From: Escherichia coli
GTDB taxonomy: Bacteria > Pseudomonadota > Gammaproteobacteria > Enterobacterales > Enterobacteriaceae
Length of the DNA stretch: 64,000 nt
Assembly: GCF_003334385.1 (NCBI RefSeq)
Contig: NZ_QOWN01000015.1
Strand: one strand, 5' to 3'
Shown here: positions 16,810-25,976 of the stretch, in pieces
Layout of the letters: each line of letters opens with the position of its first letter
Position numbering within the stretch: position 1 is the stretch's first letter
Translations under genes and position numbers: made by a program
Notes under the pieces: model-generated
Databases searched by the model: none
Seen by the model: only the letters and a program-made list of their open reading frames with translations
Told to the model about the DNA's origin: nothing

Positions 16810-18402
16810 GTGTTAGTTTCCAGTAACGTCACCATGCAGTTCGGCAGTAAGCCGTTGTTTGAAAACATTTCCGTCAAATTTGGCGGCGGCAACCGTTACG
16901 GCCTGATTGGCGCGAACGGTAGTGGTAAATCCACCTTTATGAAGATCCTCGGCGGCGACCTTGAGCCGACGCTGGGTAACGTTTCCCTCGATCCCAACGA
17001 GCGCATTGGTAAACTGCGTCAGGATCAGTTTGCCTTTGAAGAGTTCACTGTGCTGGATACGGTGATCATGGGGCATAAAGAGTTGTGGGAAGTGAAGCAG
17101 GAGCGCGACCGCATCTATGCTTTGCCGGAAATGAGTGAAGAAGACGGCTATAAAGTGGCCGATCTGGAAGTTAAATACGGCGAAATGGACGGTTACTCTG
17201 CGGAAGCTCGCGCCGGTGAACTGTTGCTTGGCGTGGGAATTCCAGTGGAACAGCACTACGGCCCGATGAGTGAAGTTGCTCCTGGCTGGAAGCTGCGTGT
17301 GCTTCTGGCGCAGGCGCTGTTTGCTGATCCGGATATTCTCCTGCTCGACGAACCGACCAACAACCTCGACATCGACACCATTCGCTGGCTGGAACAGGTG
17401 CTGAACGAGCGTGACAGCACCATGATCATCATCTCGCACGACCGTCACTTCCTTAACATGGTCTGTACCCACATGGCGGATCTGGATTACGGCGAGCTGC
17501 GCGTTTATCCGGGTAACTACGATGAGTACATGACGGCGGCGACCCAGGCGCGTGAACGTCTGCTGGCCGATAACGCCAAGAAGAAAGCGCAGATTGCTGA
17601 GTTGCAATCTTTCGTTAGCCGCTTTAGCGCCAACGCCTCGAAATCTCGCCAGGCAACTTCGCGCGCGCGCCAGATTGATAAAATCAAACTGGAAGAGGTG
17701 AAAGCCTCCAGCCGTCAGAACCCGTTCATCCGTTTTGAACAGGATAAGAAACTGTTCCGTAACGCGCTGGAAGTGGAAGGTCTGACCAAAGGGTTTGATA
17801 ACGGTCCGCTGTTTAAAAATCTCAACCTGCTGCTGGAAGTGGGTGAAAAACTGGCGGTACTGGGTACCAACGGCGTCGGTAAATCAACGCTGCTGAAAAC
17901 GCTGGTGGGCGATCTGCAACCGGACAGCGGCACCGTAAAATGGTCTGAGAACGCGCGCATTGGTTACTATGCTCAGGACCACGAATATGAGTTTGAAAAT
18001 GATCTGACCGTGTTCGAATGGATGAGCCAGTGGAAGCAGGAAGGCGATGACGAGCAGGCGGTACGCAGTATTCTCGGTCGTTTGCTGTTCAGCCAGGACG
18101 ACATCAAAAAGCCAGCTAAAGTGCTTTCCGGTGGGGAAAAAGGGCGGATGCTGTTTGGTAAGTTAATGATGCAGAAGCCGAACATTCTGATCATGGACGA
18201 ACCGACCAACCACCTGGATATGGAATCCATTGAGTCGCTGAACATGGCACTGGAACTGTATCAGGGCACGCTGATCTTTGTTTCACACGACCGTGAGTTC
18301 GTAAGCTCCCTGGCGACCCGCATTCTGGAAATCACCCCGGAACGCGTGATCGACTTTAGCGGTAATTACGAAGATTACCTGCGTAGTAAAGGGATCGAGT
18401 AA
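16810..18402 (+). CDS. ybiT: ABC-F family ATPase YbiT (two ABC cassettes, no TM domain)
   Basis: 530-aa ORF, GTG start; two Walker A motifs ([18 protein letters not shown]) and two ABC signatures (LSGGE). Confidence 0.9.
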
Positions 18403-18411
18403 GTGATTATC

Positions 18412-18438
18412 CGTCACCCCGATACTGTCGGGGTGACG
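18412..18438 (+). terminator. Stem-loop just 3' of ybiT (CGTCACCCCGATACTGTCGGGGTGACG)
   Basis: 11-bp stem, 10 nt after the ybiT stop; no clear U-tract, so terminator function is uncertain. Confidence 0.35.
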
Positions 18439-18462
18439 GCGGCTGATGACAAATGCAAAATA

Positions 18463-18560
18463 GCCTGATGCGCTACGCTTATCAGGCCTACGCAGTACCT
18501 GCAATATATTGAATCTGCAGGACTTTGTAGGCCGGATAAGGCGTTAACGCCGCATCAGGC
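18463..18560. repeat. REP/BIME cluster (two inverted REP units) downstream of ybiT
   Basis: GCCTGATGCGCTACGCTTATCAGGCCTAC and TGTAGGCCGGATAAGGCGTTAACGCCGCATCAGGC. Confidence 0.8.
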
Positions 18561-18642
18561 ATTAACAAAGCGCATTTGTCAGCAATCTGAGTAACGTCGA
18601 ATCGATTTTCTTAATCCCACATCAATTCACTTCCATTAATTC

Positions 18643-19908
18643 TCAAACATCCATGCCCAACGCTCGCTTACCGTGAATGTTGAGGTCGGCAAGCGTAAAG
18701 CGTCCTTCCCAGTTTGTTTCATAGTCCTCGCGCGGGAAGTCGCCCGGCGATGCGCCTTTTTCCAGTGCGGCCTTCACCTTGTGCGCGTAGGCAAGATTTT
18801 TCTCGCACATCGGTGCCGCAGGAATGTACATCACGTTGCCCCAACCTTGTTGATTTTCAACGGGGGCAACGGAATGGATGACGTCGCAGTGCCACCAGAC
18901 GGAGTCTCCGGCTTCGAGTTTTGGAATGCTGGTTAACGCCTCAATCAACAGTGGATGTCATTGCTCTGATACCGGCAATACTCTTCCGGGCGCTACGCCG
19001 CACAGTTCATCCTCCGGCACATCATCAAGCAGCGGACGTAACAGTACGTACGCCATAGCTTCAGGAATGGGCACGACGTGCAGCAGCCCCTGACCAGGCA
19101 GCATATCAGAGAGCGCTGTCCAGCCCTGGAATGTCCGAAACACGGAACATTTGGTGGTGTTGTCCACCGTGTACTCTTCAACTTCCGTACGATGTGCCGC
19201 ATGCCAGGGATCATATTGCGCCAGATTGCCATTAAAGACGTTGGCGAAAACGCGCTGATACGCTGGAAGCAGCCAGCGTTCCAGTGCCCCGGAGTCGGTA
19301 TGCGCTCCAAGACCTTTGGAGGTCGTTCCGGGCGGACGGCGGCGGATACGGTCAGGGTAGATGACGCTCACATCCGGGTTAAACCATTGCTTTCCATCAC
19401 TTTCAAATGTCCACAGACGATTGAGAAACGACTGCGCATTCGCCATTTCTTCACTCTGGCGGGCCTGCATTTGCGCCTGCGACCAGTAGATGGGGTAAAT
19501 CTCGGGACGTGAAGCGCTGAGCGTCCCGAAGAAATTATCGCCGGGGCCTTTGTAGACCTCGTCAAAGCGGTTGCGGTCCAGATAGTCCAGCATCGACTGA
19601 TCCCAGCCTAGCGCTTGTTCGCGGGGGAAATGGCCTTTTATCACCGCACAACCGCGACGTTTAATCTGTTCGCGCTGCTCTGCAGTAACATGACCTGCTT
19701 TGATATCGGCATAAGACAGCACCGGCCAGACGGCATCGCCCTGTGCTTTGAGTGCGTTGATTTCAGCCACTCGCGTGGCAATGTCATCGCTTAGCTGATT
19801 AAAGATCTGCTGGACGTCGCCAAGCTGCGCCCGCAGCGCGTGCTTCATCTGACGGATAGCTGCTTTGTGATCGGCAGGCAATGTGTCGCTGGTAAAAGTA
19901 GAAGCCAT
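18643..19908 (-). pseudogene. ybiU: ybiU (DUF1479 family protein) interrupted by an in-frame TGA at 18958..18960
   Basis: ORFs 18958..19914 (318 aa) and 18643..18948 (101 aa) are in the same frame; read-through gives ...PVSEQ*HPLLIEALTSIP... and a 421-codon ORF from MASTFTSD, the length I recall for intact YbiU. Confidence 0.7.
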
Positions 19909-19923
19909 AACCACCTCTCATTA

Positions 19924-19937
19924 ACTTTCATTCGAAA
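19924..19937 (-). promoter_or_regulatory. Copy A of exact 14-bp motif TTTCGAATGAAAGT (minus-strand reading), 15 nt upstream of ybiU ATG
   Basis: Plus strand reads ACTTTCATTCGAAA; identical 14-mer also at 20946..20959 and 24394..24407. Confidence 0.5.
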
Positions 19938-20014
19938 CCATTCTGATTTGCATGTGACAATATAAGTTATAAATAAGTTAATGCAAGTTTAATGATTTGA
20001 TGTGATGTACAGGA

Positions 20015-20050
20015 TGTAAAAAGAAGGGAAAACCGGAGCGCACGGCTCCG
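20015..20050 (-). terminator. Rho-independent terminator downstream of ybiV
   Basis: Hairpin CCGGAGC-GCACG-GCTCCGG just 3' of ybiV stop, followed on minus strand by UUUCCCUUCUUUUU. Confidence 0.6.
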
Positions 20051-20059
20051 GTAGAGAGG

Positions 20060-20875
20060 TCAGCTGTTAAAAGGGGATGTGTTATCCAGCACCGCCTGAA
20101 TCACATTCAGCGCGCCTTCATGATTATTATCATCGGTAGCGTAACGGGCGATTTGTTTAATGTTTTCCGCAGCATTGCCCATCGCAAAGGAATAACGCGC
20201 CATTTTCAGCATCTCCGCATCGTTACCGCTGTCGCCAATCGCTACCACATTTTGCGGTGACAGATCCCAGCGTTTCAGTAACCGCGAAATACCGTTTGCT
20301 TTATGTAGACCGGGAATAATCAGGTCGATAAAGCCAAAACCACTGGTAACGGGTTTCATAATGCCATCGAGCGCTACGTGCAGTTTGTCGATCACTAACG
20401 GGATTTGTTCATCCGGCAGGTTGAGCGAAAACTTGAACAGTACGTCGTCAATCTCCTGATAATCTTTTACAGGTTTCAGGCGATGGTAGTGTTTTGCCAT
20501 CAGTGCGACAAATGCTTCGGGGGCATTTTCGCTGACATATGCACTTTGCAGACCGCAGGCGACAAAATTGAGTTGCTTATCTTTTAGCAACTCGCCAATA
20601 ACAATCCGCGATTCATGTCGGGTCAGTTCGCCGTGGAACAACTGCTTGCCATGTTCGTAAACCAGTGCGCCGTTTTCCGCGACAAAAGAGATCTCATCCT
20701 TTAGCTCAGGAAAGAATGAAATAAGCTGGTAATACTGATTACCGCTGGCAACAACGAACTTAATGCCGCGCTTTTTCAGTTCCTGATATTGCGCCATAAA
20801 ACGTGGTTGGTTGTACGTTTTGGCGTCGTTAAGAAAAGTACCGTCCATGTCTGTGACGATAACTTTTACGCTCAT
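20060..20875 (-). CDS. ybiV: HAD-superfamily (Cof-type) sugar phosphatase YbiV
   Basis: 271-aa ORF with HAD motif I DMDGTF and C-terminal GDSGND. Confidence 0.9.
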
Positions 20876-20945
20876 AGGTGTGCTCCTGGCTCGAAAATGA
20901 AACCGTAACAGTGTAATAACAATGTGACGCAGAGCACAAATTATA

Positions 20946-20959
20946 TTTCGAATGAAAGT
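20946..20959 (+). promoter_or_regulatory. Copy B of exact 14-bp motif TTTCGAATGAAAGT, 70 nt upstream of ybiV ATG
   Basis: Exact match to copies A and C; lies between ybiW stop and ybiV start. Confidence 0.5.
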
Positions 20960-21020
20960 AAGGATGAAATTGATGATGTGAATGATTTAGCCCGGCGACG
21001 ACGCCGCCGGGCCGAGGAGA

Positions 21021-23453
21021 TTACAGCATATGTTCAGTACGGGCGATGATATCGTCCTGAGCGTCTGGAGAGAGCGCGGTGAAGAACGCGGAATAGCCCG
21101 CGACACGCACTACCAGATCGCGATACTGATCGGGATGTTTTTTCGCATCCAGCAGCGTTTCGCGGGAAACGATGTTGTACTGAATATGCCAGCCTTTATG
21201 CACTTCAAAGAAGGTACGCAGCAGGATCATCAGTTTCTGCTTGTCAGATTCGTTCTCCAGCGTTGCCGGATTCAGTTTCTGGTTGAGCAACACGCCGCCG
21301 AGAATCGCTGCCGTAGGCAGTTTACCCACTGAGCCAATGACCGCAGTAGGGCCAAGATGGTCAGTACCGGAGGCCGGGCTTGCGCCTTCTGCCAGCGGGG
21401 TGTGGGCTTTACGCCCGTCCGGTGTTGCCATAGTCTGCGCGCCAAACGGTACGTTAGCGGAGATTGATGACGTACCCGCGTAATAGTTGCCGCCAACCGG
21501 ACCACGACCGTAGCGCGGATTATGGTACTGTTTCAGTTCGTCGATATAGGTCTGATAAGCGCGAGCCAGCAGCGTATCGACAGTATCATCGTCGTTGCCG
21601 TACTTCGGCGCACCGTTAATCAGCCGCTGACGCAGCTGCTCGTGAGTCAGGCCGTCGAAGTCATCTGCCAGTGCGGCAGCAAGCTGTTGCTGACCAATCG
21701 CACCTTGTTCAAACACCAGTTTCTTCACTGCCGCCAGGCTGTTGCCGAGGTTGGCAATGCCGACCTGCAGGCCAGAAACCCAGTCATATTTCGCGCCGCC
21801 TTGCTTGATACTTTTCGCTCGCTCAATACAGTCATCCACCAGCGCCGAGCAGAGAATATCGTGCACGTTCTCTTCCAGCATGGTGTCGACGACATATTCG
21901 ATTTCGATTGATTTGCGGGTGTAGTAACGGATTTGCGTATCCCACGCGTCCATCACTTCATCGAAGTTGTTGAAGTTACCTGCCGACAACGCTTTTTCTT
22001 GTGGCAGGAACACTTTGCCGCTGGTGGCATCATGCCCGCCTTCCAGCGCCGCCAGCATCACGCGGGCGAAGTTGATAAAGCTCATGCCGGTACAGCGATA
22101 GCCCCATTTGCCACCGACGGCGGTTTCTATACAACCAATCGCTGCGTAGTCATAAGCGTCCTGCGGTTCAATACCGAGTTTAATAAATTCCGGGATCACG
22201 ATTTCGTCGTTGTTGAACGCCGGCATCCCGAAGCCGCAACGGATCACCTGTACGCAGGCGTCGAGGAAATCGTTGCTCATTCCTGCATGGTAACGCACGC
22301 TGAGGTTAGGCTGAGTGGAACGCAGGCGACCGCAGGATTCGAGGATCGCGTAAGAGAGTGGATTCACCGCGTCCATTGGTTGACCATCAACCAGATTTTG
22401 CCCGCCAATAGTGACGTTCTGATACAGCGGACTTCCCGCAGAGGCTTTTGAGTGTGAGCCGGAGCGGATCTTGTTCACTTCCAGCAGTTTCAGCCAGCAG
22501 CTATGCAGCATCTCGATGGCGTGTTCGCGATCCAGCGTCTGGTTGAGTTCAACGTCGCGGCGATAGTACGGGTAGAGATACTGGTCCATACGACCAAACG
22601 ATACTGAGTGACCGTTAGATTCGATCTGCAAAATCAACTGGATGAAGTAACACAGTTGCAGCGCCTGCCAGAAAGTCTGCGGCGGCTGGTGGGCGATAAG
22701 ATCGCAGTTTTCTGCCATCGCCAGCAGTTCATCGCGACGGCTTTCGCGGGTTTCGGTCGCGGCCATTTCACGCGCCAGGGCAGCGAAACGTTCAATGTGT
22801 TCACTGACTGCCACCAGCACGATATCAATCGCTTTCAGGAATTGCTCACCGTGTAAATCTTCCAGCACCGTCAGGTTGATGCGCGAGCGACGTTCCGCTA
22901 CTTTCTCGCGCAGACCATCAAGCCCTTTTTCCAGCAGCAGCGGGAAATTCACCGCCAGGTGCGCATCGCCGGAGGTCATATTGCCTTCCGCTTTAATGAT
23001 TCCGGTCGCCAGCAGACCTTTTTGCTCATCGGTAAACATGCCGTAGCAGCGATCCTGTACGGTCTGACCGCGCCACCACGGGCACACTTCATGCAGAACG
23101 CGTTTGTTCTCTTCGCTCACCGCAAAGCCAGCACCGGGACGATCTGCCAGATCATCAATCTCTTTTTCGATCCACGAGACAGTATATTCCGGGAAGATCG
23201 GCGCGGCGCGAACTTCGCTTGCCTGGTTGCCAATGATCAACTCATCGTGTTTGATCCAGATGGTGCGATTCGCCAGGTGATGCGCCAGTGCCAGCGCGCG
23301 ACGTACCGGGATCGGCTTATCGAGATGTTGTTGATACATCTCGGTATAGTGCTGCGCGCGCTCGGTACAGACTGGCGGTTTCACAATATGCACCAGCGCA
23401 TTTTTGTGCGCTTTAATGCGGTCGCTGAGCGTGTCCAGTTTCAGTGTGGTCAT
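21021..23453 (-). CDS. ybiW: Glycyl-radical enzyme YbiW (PFL-like fold; active-site loop GCIE of the eliminase type)
   Basis: 810-aa ORF; C-terminal glycyl radical motif RVAGYSA; single catalytic Cys followed by Glu (AAIGCIETAVGG) rather than adjacent Cys-Cys. Confidence 0.9.
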   Translation of the reverse strand: MTTLKLDTLSDRIKAHKNALVHIVKPPVCTERAQHYTEMYQQHLDKPIPVRRALALAHHLANRTIWIKHDELIIGNQASEVRAAPIFPEYTVSWIEKEIDDLADRPGAGFAVSEENKRVLHEVCPWWRGQTVQDRCYGMFTDEQKGLLATGIIKAEGNMTSGDAHLAVNFPLLLEKGLDGLREKVAERRSRINLTVLEDLHGEQFLKAIDIVLVAVSEHIERFAALAREMAATETRESRRDELLAMAENCDLIAHQPPQTFWQALQLCYFIQLILQIESNGHSVSFGRMDQYLYPYYRRDVELNQTLDREHAIEMLHSCWLKLLEVNKIRSGSHSKASAGSPLYQNVTIGGQNLVDGQPMDAVNPLSYAILESCGRLRSTQPNLSVRYHAGMSNDFLDACVQVIRCGFGMPAFNNDEIVIPEFIKLGIEPQDAYDYAAIGCIETAVGGKWGYRCTGMSFINFARVMLAALEGGHDATSGKVFLPQEKALSAGNFNNFDEVMDAWDTQIRYYTRKSIEIEYVVDTMLEENVHDILCSALVDDCIERAKSIKQGGAKYDWVSGLQVGIANLGNSLAAVKKLVFEQGAIGQQQLAAALADDFDGLTHEQLRQRLINGAPKYGNDDDTVDTLLARAYQTYIDELKQYHNPRYGRGPVGGNYYAGTSSISANVPFGAQTMATPDGRKAHTPLAEGASPASGTDHLGPTAVIGSVGKLPTAAILGGVLLNQKLNPATLENESDKQKLMILLRTFFEVHKGWHIQYNIVSRETLLDAKKHPDQYRDLVVRVAGYSAFFTALSPDAQDDIIARTEHML

Positions 23454-23458
23454 GGTTG

Positions 23459-24358
23459 TTATCCTCGTAAGGTCGCGGTTAACCCTTTCTGGCAGGCATA
23501 CTGCTGGGCAAAGTCGAGCAGTTCTGGCGCATCAAGCGGTTTTTCCGGGGCGTCATAGGGCAGATTAAGTAAGTGATATTTGTTGATGCCCAGCGTGTGG
23601 TAGGGCAGAAAATGAATTTCGCCAACGTGCAGCTCGTCGGCGGCAAAATCGGTAATGGCTTTTACAGAGGTTTCGTCGGCATTAAAGCCCTGAATCAGCG
23701 GCACGCGGATAATGATTTTTTTGCCCGCTGCGGCGAGTTTTTTCAGGTTATCCAGCACTCTGGCGGCGTTACCGTCGGTCCACTGTTTAAACGGCGCGTC
23801 GGCAACGTGTTTTAAATCGGCAAGAAACAGATCGATATAGGGCAGAGAAGGGGCGATATATTTCCACGGCACATGCAGACAGGTTTCTACCGCAGTATGA
23901 ATGCCTGCCTCGTGGCTGGCTTGCAGTAGCGCCATCGCCATTTCCGGCTGCATAAAGGGCTCACCACCCGAAAGCGTTAAACCGCCGCCGCTGCGATCGT
24001 AAAACGGTTTATCGCGCAGAACGGTCGTCATGATCTCCTCAACGCTTTTCACTTCACCACACACGGTTAATGCCTGTGTCGGACAGCAGTCGGTTAACGC
24101 CGTCAGATGCTCCGGGGTTAACTTTTCCCGATGAATAAGCAAACCATTCAGCGCGCGCTCAATCACTTCCGGCGCGGCCTTAGCGCACAGCTCGCAGCCT
24201 TCCAGACACAGTCGTGCGTCATACAGCAGATCCTGCGTGCGGGCGCGGCTTTCCGGGTTCTGACACCAGCGGCAGCCCAGCGAACAGCCTTTAAGAAATA
24301 CGACCGTGCGGATACCGGGGCCATCATGGGTCGAGTAGCGCTGAATATTGAAAATCAT
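23459..24358 (-). CDS. ybiY: Glycyl-radical enzyme activating enzyme YbiY (radical SAM)
   Basis: Start chosen at [36 protein letters not shown] (CX3CX2C radical-SAM motif) within ORF 23459..24385; additional Cys-rich ferredoxin-like insert. Confidence 0.85.
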
Positions 24359-24393
24359 AGTTGCCTCTCTATTTCGTTCAAGCATTAAAATAC

Positions 24394-24407
24394 TTTCGAA
24401 TGAAAGT
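24394..24407 (+). promoter_or_regulatory. Copy C of exact 14-bp motif TTTCGAATGAAAGT in ybiY/fsaA divergent region
   Basis: 35 nt upstream of ybiY ATG and 81 nt upstream of fsaA ATG; flanked by 6-bp inverted repeat arms ACTTTC/GAAAGT. Confidence 0.5.
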
Positions 24408-24411
24408 TAGA

Positions 24412-24425
24412 TTGATGTGCGTCAA
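24412..24425. promoter_or_regulatory. FNR-like box TTGATGTGCGTCAA upstream of ybiY
   Basis: Matches FNR consensus TTGAT-N4-ATCAA with one mismatch; centred about 60 nt upstream of ybiY ATG. Confidence 0.45.
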
Positions 24426-24488
24426 CTGTTCAGAGAGTTTTCCCGTGATAGTCTACATTCAGACAAAAAGTACATTTTGAGGATGGTT

Positions 24489-25151
24489 ATGGAACTGTAT
24501 CTGGATACTTCAGACGTTGTTGCGGTGAAGGCGCTGTCACGTATTTTTCCGCTGGCGGGTGTGACCACTAACCCAAGCATTATCGCCGCGGGTAAAAAAC
24601 CGCTGGATGTTGTGCTTCCGCAACTTCATGAAGCGATGGGCGGTCAGGGGCGTCTGTTTGCCCAGGTAATGGCTACCACTGCCGAAGGGATGGTTAATGA
24701 CGCGCTTAAGCTGCGTTCTATTATTGCGGATATCGTGGTGAAAGTTCCGGTGACCGCCGAGGGGCTGGCAGCTATTAAGATGTTAAAAGCGGAAGGGATT
24801 CCGACGCTGGGAACCGCGGTATATGGCGCAGCACAAGGGCTGCTGTCGGCGCTGGCAGGTGCGGAATATGTTGCGCCTTACGTTAATCGTATTGATGCTC
24901 AGGGCGGTAGCGGCATTCAGACTGTGACCGACTTACACCAGTTATTGAAAATGCATGCGCCGCAGGCGAAAGTGCTGGCAGCGAGTTTCAAAACCCCGCG
25001 TCAGGCGCTGGACTGCTTACTGGCAGGATGTGAATCAATTACTCTGCCACTGGATGTGGCACAACAGATGATTAGCTATCCGGCGGTTGATGCCGCTGTG
25101 GCGAAGTTTGAGCAGGACTGGCAGGGAGCGTTTGGCAGAACGTCGATTTAA
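24489..25151 (+). CDS. fsaA: Fructose-6-phosphate aldolase 1 (transaldolase-like)
   Basis: 220-aa product [31 protein letters not shown]... inside ORF 24417..25151. Confidence 0.9.
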
Positions 25152-25226
25152 CCGGACGTTCTGCATCCTCATAAATTGCTGATGACGTGGCGGAGTGCCG
25201 CGTCTTATCAGGCCTGGAGGTGGCAA

Positions 25227-25976
25227 TTACTGCCCACACACCTCACACCCCGGATTACGCATCAGTTTCATTTCGCGAAACTGACAGGTCATCGCATCGT
25301 ACATGACGATTTTCCCGCTGGCCGGTTTGCCATAACCTGCCAGCATTTTGATCGCTTCCATTGCCTGCAACGAACCAATTACGCCGATCAACGGTGCCAT
25401 TACGCCTGCTTCCACGCAGGTTAATGCATTTTCACCAAACAAACGGCTAAGGCAGCGATAGCACGGTTCACCGTCCTGATAAGTAAAGACGGTGATTTGA
25501 CCTTCCATACGAATTGCCGCGCCGGAAACCAGCGGTACCTTCGCGGCAAAACAGCCTGCGTTCAGTTGATTACGTACCGCAACGTTATCCGTACAGTCGA
25601 GCACCAGATCGTGTTCAGCAATCAATGCTGCAAGTTCTGCGTCATCCAGCAGTGCATTGACTGGCGTAATCGCGATATGTGGGTTGATCCGCGTCAGGGC
25701 GTCACGGGCGGATTCCACCTTCGGTTGCCCGACCGTGGCATCACTGTGCAGTGTCTGGCGTTGCAGATTCGAGAGCGAAACCGTGTCGAAGTCGAGCAGC
25801 GTCAGGTTACCGACACCGGCGCTTGCCAGATACTGCGAGGCTGCACAGCCGAGGCCGCCCAGGCCCACTATCAGCACGCGAGAATCTTTCAGCGCCTCCT
25901 GGCCGTCAAAATCAAAGCCGCGCAGAATGATTTGCCGGTTGTAGCGCAGCATCTCCTGATCGCTGAGTTCCGCCAT
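25227..25976 (-). CDS. moeB: Molybdopterin-synthase adenylyltransferase MoeB
   Basis: 249-aa ThiF/MoeB family ORF with GLGGLG nucleotide-binding motif and C-terminal CXXC pairs. Confidence 0.95.
   Translation of the reverse strand: MAELSDQEMLRYNRQIILRGFDFDGQEALKDSRVLIVGLGGLGCAASQYLASAGVGNLTLLDFDTVSLSNLQRQTLHSDATVGQPKVESARDALTRINPHIAITPVNALLDDAELAALIAEHDLVLDCTDNVAVRNQLNAGCFAAKVPLVSGAAIRMEGQITVFTYQDGEPCYRCLSRLFGENALTCVEAGVMAPLIGVIGSLQAMEAIKMLAGYGKPASGKIVMYDAMTCQFREMKLMRNPGCEVCGQ

Follow-up and report, generated by a model that had tools for sequence, protein, structure and literature searches.

The ybiV-ybiW-ybiY-fsaA Cluster of Escherichia coli: A Glycyl Radical Enzyme and Its Probable Role in the Anaerobic Breakdown of 1,5-Anhydroglucitol

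Organization of the Cluster

The ybiV-ybiW-ybiY-fsaA cluster occupies positions 20060-25151 of the window, that is, of the whole 64-kb stretch of Escherichia coli DNA (64,000 nucleotides of contig NZ_QOWN01000015.1) analyzed in this work, and the positions of its four open reading frames (ORFs) have been checked. At its center lies ybiW (21021-23453, minus strand), which encodes a glycyl radical enzyme of 810 amino acids (Gly786, Cys441, Glu443). It is preceded on the same strand by ybiY (23459-24358), coding for a radical S-adenosylmethionine (radical-SAM) activase of 299 amino acids that carries the motif C25-x3-C29-x2-C32 and a Cys-rich ferredoxin-like insert, and it is followed by ybiV, also named supH (20060-20875, minus strand), the product of which is a Cof-type HAD-IIB sugar phosphatase of 271 amino acids (PDB 1rlm, 2hf2). 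The fourth gene, fsaA (24489-25151, plus strand), is divergent from ybiY and encodes a fructose-6-phosphate aldolase of 220 amino acids. The longest ORF of ybiY reaches position 24385, and the start employed here is the one giving MIFNIQ, as in RefSeq and K-12; in the case of fsaA, the mechanically derived ORF begins with a GTG at 24417 and the annotated gene with the ATG at 24489. An original prediction, made without database searches, had pointed to fsaA and ybiV as neighbors of ybiY-ybiW. The ORFs bear this out, and the same arrangement is found in every complete E. coli genome surveyed (5426/5426), where RefSeq names the genes ybiV, ybiW, ybiY and fsa.

Several E. coli chromosomes carry the same 5092-bp stretch with 100% identity. 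Comparison with K-12 MG1655 over positions 18400-25300 reveals two base differences only, one leading to the substitution E184K in YbiW and the other to a stop codon in the neighboring gene ybiU, with YbiY, YbiV, FsaA and three intergenic regions being identical to K-12. The Lys184 variant of YbiW (region of position 22904; Glu in K-12) is common to other natural isolates, and the DNA is 100% identical to that of strain 203740. The stop codon of ybiY and the start codon of ybiW are separated by 5 bp, a gap short enough to suggest that both genes belong to a single operon.

Family Assignment and Active Site

YbiW displays the glycyl radical motif RVAGYSA around Gly786, which aligns with RVAGYS of the glycerol dehydratase 1r8w, PflD and HypD, and with RVSGYA of PflB. 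Its Cys loop, AAIGCIETAVGG, contains a single cysteine, Cys441, separated by one residue from Glu443. These two residues fall on Cys433 and Glu435 of 1r8w, in an alignment that is gap-free before the Cys loop. In 1r8w, Cys433 is the thiyl-radical cysteine and Glu435 the general-base glutamate. K-12 PflD and a HypD protein present GCVE in the same columns, whereas E. coli PflB harbors the adjacent pair Cys418-Cys419, with Cys419 under Cys441 of YbiW (Gly440-Cys441 in this protein) and a Ser under Glu443. At the family level, the only NCBIfam hidden Markov model passed by YbiW is that of the PFL2/glycerol-dehydratase subfamily (TIGR01774; 1410.9 bits, cut-off 678.2), and it stays under the cut-off of each equivalog model tried, namely HypD (531 versus 1100), CutC, sulfopropanediol dehydratase (518 versus 1000) and PflB. 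Searches of the PDB recovered glycerol dehydratase (1r8w, E-value 1e-163) and propanediol dehydratase (2e-151), together with 8id7/8yjn, deposited as 'Probable dehydratase YbiW', which match YbiW over all 810 residues with 1863 bits and are identical to it over the C-terminal 409; the entry 8yjo corresponds to PflD. A location of the Cys and Glu outside the catalytic positions, which had been named beforehand as grounds for giving up the original prediction, is contradicted by these alignments, and the assignment of YbiW to the eliminase type of glycyl radical enzymes stands.

The remaining products of the cluster are assigned with comparable ease. YbiY scores 370 bits against the glycyl-radical activase model TIGR02494 (cut-off 174) and carries the motif CSLGCRWC (Cys25/29/32). 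FsaA exceeds the thresholds of both NF009296 (451 bits, cut-off 306) and TIGR00875 (279, cut-off 246), and it contains Lys85 within VVKVP, a lysine that is kept in the aldolase encoded beside the YbiW homologue of Clostridium butyricum. In the family of FsaA, this lysine is the catalytic one that forms the Schiff base. YbiV matches the Cof-type HAD-IIB model with 221 bits (cut-off 137). The presence in YbiW of a glycyl radical motif together with a lone Cys-x-Glu loop, its eliminase rather than pyruvate formate-lyase (PFL) type, which the catalytic columns of 1r8w, PflD, HypD and PflB now support, and the radical-SAM activase nature of YbiY had all been put forward beforehand from the translations, and each of these proposals held.

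Reaction and Substrate of YbiW

The function of ybiW has been in the literature since 2024 and the co-regulation of its neighbors since 2021, and the cluster as such is already known. It has been reported that YbiW converts 1,5-anhydroglucitol-6-phosphate (AG6P) into 1-deoxy-fructose-6-phosphate (Ma et al., JACS 146:26187, 2024, as summarized in section 5.1 of PMC12441222). According to this summary, 1,5-anhydroglucitol and 1,5-anhydromannitol are phosphorylated by a phosphotransferase system (PTS), and PflD cleaves 1,5-anhydromannitol-6-phosphate, likewise to 1-deoxy-fructose-6-phosphate. Both reactions are described there as dependent on the glycyl radical, the one on AG6P as a cleavage of the C1-O5 bond next to the C2 hydroxyl, and the route as enabling E. 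coli, along with many bacteria of the gut, to grow on the compound in strictly anaerobic conditions. Since the leaving oxygen is that of the ring and is kept in the product, the reaction is a ring-opening isomerization and not a loss of water. The original prediction had proposed the dehydration of a sugar or polyol phosphate to a deoxy-keto sugar phosphate cleaved by FsaA and advised looking for an assigned substrate in the literature. Such a substrate, AG6P, is indeed on record in the above summary; the expected type of product was the right one, as 1-deoxy-fructose-6-phosphate attests, and the dehydration has to be replaced by the isomerization. In this sense, reasoning from the sequence arrived at the right chemistry. 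The further suggestion of that prediction, a neighboring step carried out by YbiV and possibly YbiU, is conjectural.

A mechanism for the route can be proposed as follows. 1,5-anhydroglucitol would enter the cell through the PTS as AG6P, the published step. YbiY, with S-adenosylmethionine, would generate a radical on Gly786 of YbiW, from where it would move to Cys441, allowing this residue to take the C2 hydrogen of AG6P. Glu443 would accept the proton of the C2 hydroxyl, and the ketyl-type radical so formed would break the vicinal C1-O5 ring bond, after which the C1 radical would regain a hydrogen from Cys441 to yield a methyl ketone. Because the leaving group stays attached, the net result would be the opening of the ring by isomerization. 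We infer this radical mechanism by analogy with the chemistry of the glycyl radical eliminases. Downstream of YbiW, FsaA or FsaB reportedly splits 1-deoxy-fructose-6-phosphate into hydroxyacetone and glyceraldehyde-3-phosphate, and GldA is said to reduce hydroxyacetone to 1,2-propanediol. The linkage of fsaA to ybiY-ybiW is in support of such a sequence of steps, in which the product of YbiW would be handed over to FsaA and then to GldA.

An alternative to be weighed is that YbiW might genuinely act as a dehydratase, removing water from a linear polyol or a sugar phosphate, with AG6P as no more than a side substrate. This would be in keeping with its closest characterized structures, the glycerol and propanediol dehydratases mentioned above, which share its Cys-x-Glu loop, and with the name chosen by the PDB depositors. 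It is improbable, however, given that the published activity is the ring-opening of AG6P with reported growth of bacteria on the compound (summary in PMC12441222), that YbiW scores under every dehydratase equivalog cut-off, HypD and sulfopropanediol dehydratase included, and that its conserved aldolase neighbor fits a 1-deoxy-ketose-phosphate product. The ring-opening of AG6P is the favored reading of the YbiW reaction, and the pathway carries an interest of its own. 1,5-anhydroglucitol is an abundant polyol of diet and blood and a clinical glycemic marker, the 6-phosphate of which is toxic in two human neutropenias, as published, and the pathway lets gut bacteria ferment it. In Shigella, the YbiW protein has been found to be strongly increased in the gut.

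Control of the Cluster by YciT and, Probably, by FNR

The regulation of the cluster by YciT, a repressor of the DeoR family, was brought to light in a study in which chromatin immunoprecipitation with exonuclease treatment (ChIP-exo) detected YciT peaks at this locus (Gao et al. 2021, PMC8464067). Upon deletion of yciT in cells growing aerobically on glucose, the five genes of the region become the top derepressed ones, with log2 changes of +7.74 for ybiY, +7.04 for ybiU, +3.53 for ybiW, +2.20 for ybiV and +1.78 for fsaA (PMC8464067 supplement). Co-expression of fsaA and ybiV with ybiYW, the absence of which had been named as grounds for abandoning the original prediction, is evidenced by this joint derepression. 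The anaerobic expression anticipated for the cluster has also found support in a Reg-Seq preprint, where the ybiYW promoter was active only anaerobically and pulled down YciT, which acts there as a repressor with a footprint of its own; an additional activator footprint, its factor not named, was placed about 15 bp upstream.

Inspection of the window uncovered a candidate for the element recognized by YciT. The 12-mer TTTCGAATGAAA occurs in exactly three copies in the 64 kb when one mismatch is allowed (0.5 expected), and all of them lie in promoter-type intergenic regions, 5' of ybiU, 5' of ybiV and between ybiY and fsaA. The motif shared by these three promoter regions, and found only there, extends over 16 bp as TTTCGAATGAAAGT(T/A)A. 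The candidate operator of the ybiY/fsaA divergent region, TTTCGAATGAAAGTTA, is located at 24394-24409 (plus strand), 36-51 bp 5' of the ybiY ATG, a position that fits the YciT footprint of Reg-Seq. The one upstream of ybiV, TTTCGAATGAAAGTAA, spans 20946-20961 (plus strand), and the one of ybiU, again TTTCGAATGAAAGTTA, spans 19922-19937 (minus strand), 14 bp 5' of the ATG and 3' of a promoter-like site TTGCAT-16-TATATT. In Klebsiella aerogenes, the boxes appear at the same places despite diverged intergenic DNA and the absence of fsaA. This conservation is general: in a scan of one genome per species, selected by YbiU alignment and comprising 80 Enterobacterales loci, the 220 bp preceding ybiU contained a TTTCGAATGAAA box with up to 2 mismatches in 79 of the 80 loci, those preceding ybiV in 63 of 67 loci, and those preceding ybiY in all 59, at fixed distances and amid variable flanks. 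Near-identical boxes are present upstream of ybiU in Pantoea (TTACGAATGAAGGTTA and TTTCGAATGAAATGAA) and, outside this order, between the activase and radical-enzyme genes of C. butyricum (TTTCGAATGAAATTA and TTTCAAATGAAATTA). The regulators that adjoin the Firmicute clusters share 40-41% identity with YciT and have the YciT model as their best NCBIfam match. On the basis of its position and conservation, also next to YciT-like regulators, the TTTCGAATGAAA box is probably the YciT operator, through which this protein would repress ybiYW, ybiV, ybiU and fsaA. The conserved operator core across some 80 Enterobacterales species and C. butyricum is an addition of the present analysis; the sequence of a YciT motif was not found as text in the ChIP-exo supplements (PMC8464067).

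A second element lies three bases beyond the YciT box on the ybiY side. This FNR-type box, TTGATGTGCGTCAA (24412-24425), is the sole TTGAYN4RTCAA of the 64-kb window. With the YciT box as the anchor, comparison of the ybiY upstream sequences from different species shows TTGA(C/T) and (A/G)TCAA as half-sites in all 53 distinct ones, around a 4-bp spacer that varies; the strict form TTGATN4RTCAA is found in 19 of 60 upstream regions, and all 53 distinct anchored sequences are covered when C or T is allowed at position 5. A conserved TTTAAT after the YciT box (24389-24384, minus strand) constitutes a putative -10 element of the ybiY promoter. If this is so, transcription is predicted to start near 24377, which would set the FNR-type box at -41.5 and the YciT box at about -31 to -14. 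The position -41.5 is the classical one of class II activators. An FNR-type box so placed, together with a YciT box over the core promoter, would account for the anaerobic activation of ybiYW as well as for its repression, and the activation is probably exerted through FNR. The two Reg-Seq footprints are spaced relative to each other as these two boxes are, and the FNR-type box may correspond to the activator footprint of that preprint. In the open-access literature searched, no paper dealing with ybiY and FNR together and none linking FNR to ybiW was found; two papers that name ybiW together with FNR treat ybiW only as an alternative PFL. This model, in which the YciT box overlaps with core promoter elements and the FNR-type box takes up a class II position, gives a concrete shape to the control of this pathway.

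The arrangement of these elements suggests that the genes are distributed among several transcription units, namely ybiYW, ybiV, ybiU (preceded by a promoter-like site and a box of its own) and the divergent fsaA. In particular, ybiV appears to constitute a unit of its own, endowed with its own box and with a canonical terminator, the intrinsic-terminator-like hairpin with a T-run at 20032-20052 (minus strand), 3' of the gene. Directly 3' of the ybiW stop codon there is a G+C-rich hairpin of 11 bp without a U-tract (20990-21013, minus strand; -24 kcal/mol, z -4.6), which may function as a partial or attenuating terminator or as an end-protecting structure that stabilizes the RNA.

Altogether, the cluster very probably encodes an anaerobic route for the breakdown of 1,5-anhydroglucitol that operates under the control of YciT and, probably, of FNR. 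Several observations weigh against this interpretation. The assignments of the TTTCGAATGAAA box to YciT and of the FNR-type box to FNR are proposed from position and conservation. The YciT sites 858455-858488 and 862873-862900 of dataset S4 (PMC8464067) fall inside ybiU and ybiY in the current MG1655 numbering, and they come to lie about 100-170 bp off the boxes only if an older numbering, unconfirmed and shifted by about 777 bp, is assumed; the authors of Reg-Seq mention a 100-bp discrepancy that agrees with this offset. The steps of FsaA and GldA and the growth phenotype are drawn from an abstract and from the one-paragraph summary of a review. Finally, fsaA is not beside the cluster in Klebsiella, Raoultella, Phytobacter, Trabulsiella and some Kosakonia, so that the aldolase need not be supplied by a local gene.

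YbiU, YbiV and the Gene Neighborhood

The gene ybiU (18646-19908, minus strand) encodes a DUF1479/Gig2-like protein and is interrupted in the window by a TGA at codon 317. The change from TGG to TGA at W317 (stop at 18958-18960, differing base 18958) leaves 316 of 421 amino acids and removes the invariant His340 and His345. An exact 61-mer around this stop is present in none of the 5426 complete E. coli genomes, and for this reason it is either a private allele or a sequencing error. YbiU belongs to the Pfam family Gig2-like PF07350 (formerly DUF1479), with structures that have no assigned function (2dbi, 2csg, 4rgk and the Candida GIG2 6akz), and a sequence-profile search of the PDB returned DUF1479/Gig2 structures only, with no characterized oxygenase among them. 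His203-x-Asp205 and the pair His340/His345 are invariant among five homologues, a pattern reminiscent of the HxD...H metal triad of Fe(II)/2-oxoglutarate oxygenases. YbiV, for its part, has served as a hexose-6-phosphate phosphatase in engineering. Between ybiT and the end of ybiU, a match to the Rfam small RNA family ES036 (CssrF) was detected at 18484-18526 (minus strand; 41.6 bits versus a gathering threshold of 37.6), and position 18521, one of two differences from strain 203740, falls inside this match.

The company kept by ybiU was classified in 62 Enterobacterales loci with full flanks. The radical enzyme is near ybiU in 49 of them, 41 of which also contain fsaA, and the complete ybiV-ybiW-ybiY set stands beside ybiU in 45, with fsaA too in 37. 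Three loci have kept ybiV-ybiU and lost the radical enzyme. In another 14, yciT is located immediately 3' of ybiU, and 10 of these 14, from Pantoea, Rosenbergiella and others, have no radical enzyme within 10 kb; five of the 10, all from Pantoea, possess a divergent YbiV orthologue (51% identical in P. agglomerans). Pantoea plasmid loci with ybiU-yciT include L011 (5925-9089) and L013 (5956-9055), and further loci are L077-L093, from Erwiniaceae and a few other genera. The other four loci with yciT, from Mixta and Mangrovibacter, have ybiW-ybiY-fsaA nearby and no ybiV; in Mixta, ybiW and ybiY are on one strand and fsaA, ybiU and yciT are co-directional on the other. The remaining neighbors in these two genera (a metal ATP-binding cassette (ABC) transporter, a beta-glucoside PTS, threonate genes and ParA) offered no clue to a substrate.

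The linkage of ybiU to yciT independently of the radical enzyme indicates that YbiU is tied to the regulator no less closely than the radical enzyme is. It is conceivable, albeit doubtful, that the oxygenase-like YbiU and the phosphatase YbiV constitute a second YciT-controlled branch, independent of the radical enzyme and possibly using oxygen, that would deal with the same inducer once YbiW is inactivated by oxygen. Consistent with such a branch are the 10 of 14 ybiU-yciT loci without a radical enzyme, the strong aerobic derepression of ybiU and the fact that this gene carries the best YciT box. Purely as an illustration, hydroxylation of AG6P at C1 by YbiU might yield glucose-6-phosphate, and YbiV might act as a dephosphorylating safety valve. 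The persistence of YbiU and YbiV alongside the regulator in loci that lack the radical enzyme makes them a defined experimental target.

These neighborhoods also bear on the idea that the five genes are neighbors by chance of synteny, with fsaA, ybiV and ybiU unrelated to the YbiW reaction. The absence of fsaA beside the cluster in several genera, that of ybiV and ybiU beside the Firmicute and Chloroflexota homologues, and the broad hexose-phosphate specificity of the phosphatase YbiV would all be compatible with it. Such a coincidence is nevertheless improbable, considering that one operator motif is shared by three promoter regions of genes that head the list of those derepressed in the yciT deletion, that the radical enzyme has an aldolase next to it at the pflD locus as well as in C. 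butyricum, and that Mixta ybiU is part of a single co-directional string with fsaA and yciT. As far as co-regulation is concerned, chance synteny is contradicted by the yciT-deletion data and the shared box, and it was rejected.

Comparison with Known Systems

Among characterized glycyl radical enzymes, PflB resembles YbiW in its superfamily fold, its glycyl radical motif and its type of activating enzyme, and departs from it in the Cys-Cys pair, the Ser in place of Glu, the cleavage of a C-C bond and an overall identity of 24%. A role of YbiW as a third pyruvate/2-ketoacid formate-lyase, as conveyed by the K-12 annotation, by several PDB/RefSeq names ('putative pyruvate formate lyase 3', 'formate C-acetyltransferase') and by older papers that call it an alternative PFL, was rejected and deserves next to no credence, in view of its single Cys against Cys418-Cys419, its Glu against the PflB Ser, a score of 165 bits against a cut-off of 994 for TIGR01255 and the different reaction assigned in the literature. 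CutC, HypD and IslA are members of the same eliminase branch as YbiW (E-values 1e-110 to 1e-128). Their leaving groups are amine, water and sulfite, and YbiW lies under their NCBIfam equivalog cut-offs. Glycerol dehydratase (1r8w) and propanediol dehydratase (5i2a) have the same Cys-x-Glu and Gly loops and follow the same logic, in which a vicinal C-O bond is broken by radical 1,2-elimination; with these enzymes a small diol loses water, whereas YbiW breaks the ring ether of a phosphorylated C6 substrate and the oxygen is retained.

The closest parallel within E. coli is the paralogous locus in which gldA-fsaB-ptsA stands beside frwCB-pflD-pflC-frwD. Like the ybiW cluster, it combines a radical enzyme with the motifs GC(V/I)E and RVAGYSAFF, an activase (PflC) and a fructose-6-phosphate aldolase paralogue, and the same product is ascribed to it in the review summary (PMC12441222). 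PflD, which shares 39% identity with YbiW, has the C2 epimer as its substrate. The pflD locus has its own PTS, gldA and the AraC-type regulator YijO, and it has no YciT box, ybiU or ybiV.

Outside the Enterobacterales, a C. butyricum megaplasmid encodes a 50%-identical YbiW homologue, directly followed by a fructose-6-phosphate aldolase (38% identical to FsaA) and preceded by a divergent activase and a YciT-like regulator of the DeoR family. In Enterococcus gilvus, the YbiW homologue is accompanied by an activase and a DeoR regulator, and on a Chloroflexota plasmid by genes for a ROK kinase and a sugar ABC transporter. Closer to E. coli, Klebsiella aerogenes (L008, 3187-9804) lacks fsaA between moeB and ybiY, with ybiY-ybiW-ybiV-ybiU and the boxes being kept, and fsaA is likewise absent at L045, L050, L057, L058, L061-L064, L066 and L068. 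Where fsaA is missing, as in Klebsiella, the aldolase step must be either supplied from elsewhere or absent. As for K-12, the source of 8id7 and 8yjn, the gene is the same and the window protein differs by E184K only. The two clusters show no functional difference in ybiW, ybiY and fsaA, and what sets the window apart is the apparently private nonsense codon of the neighboring ybiU.

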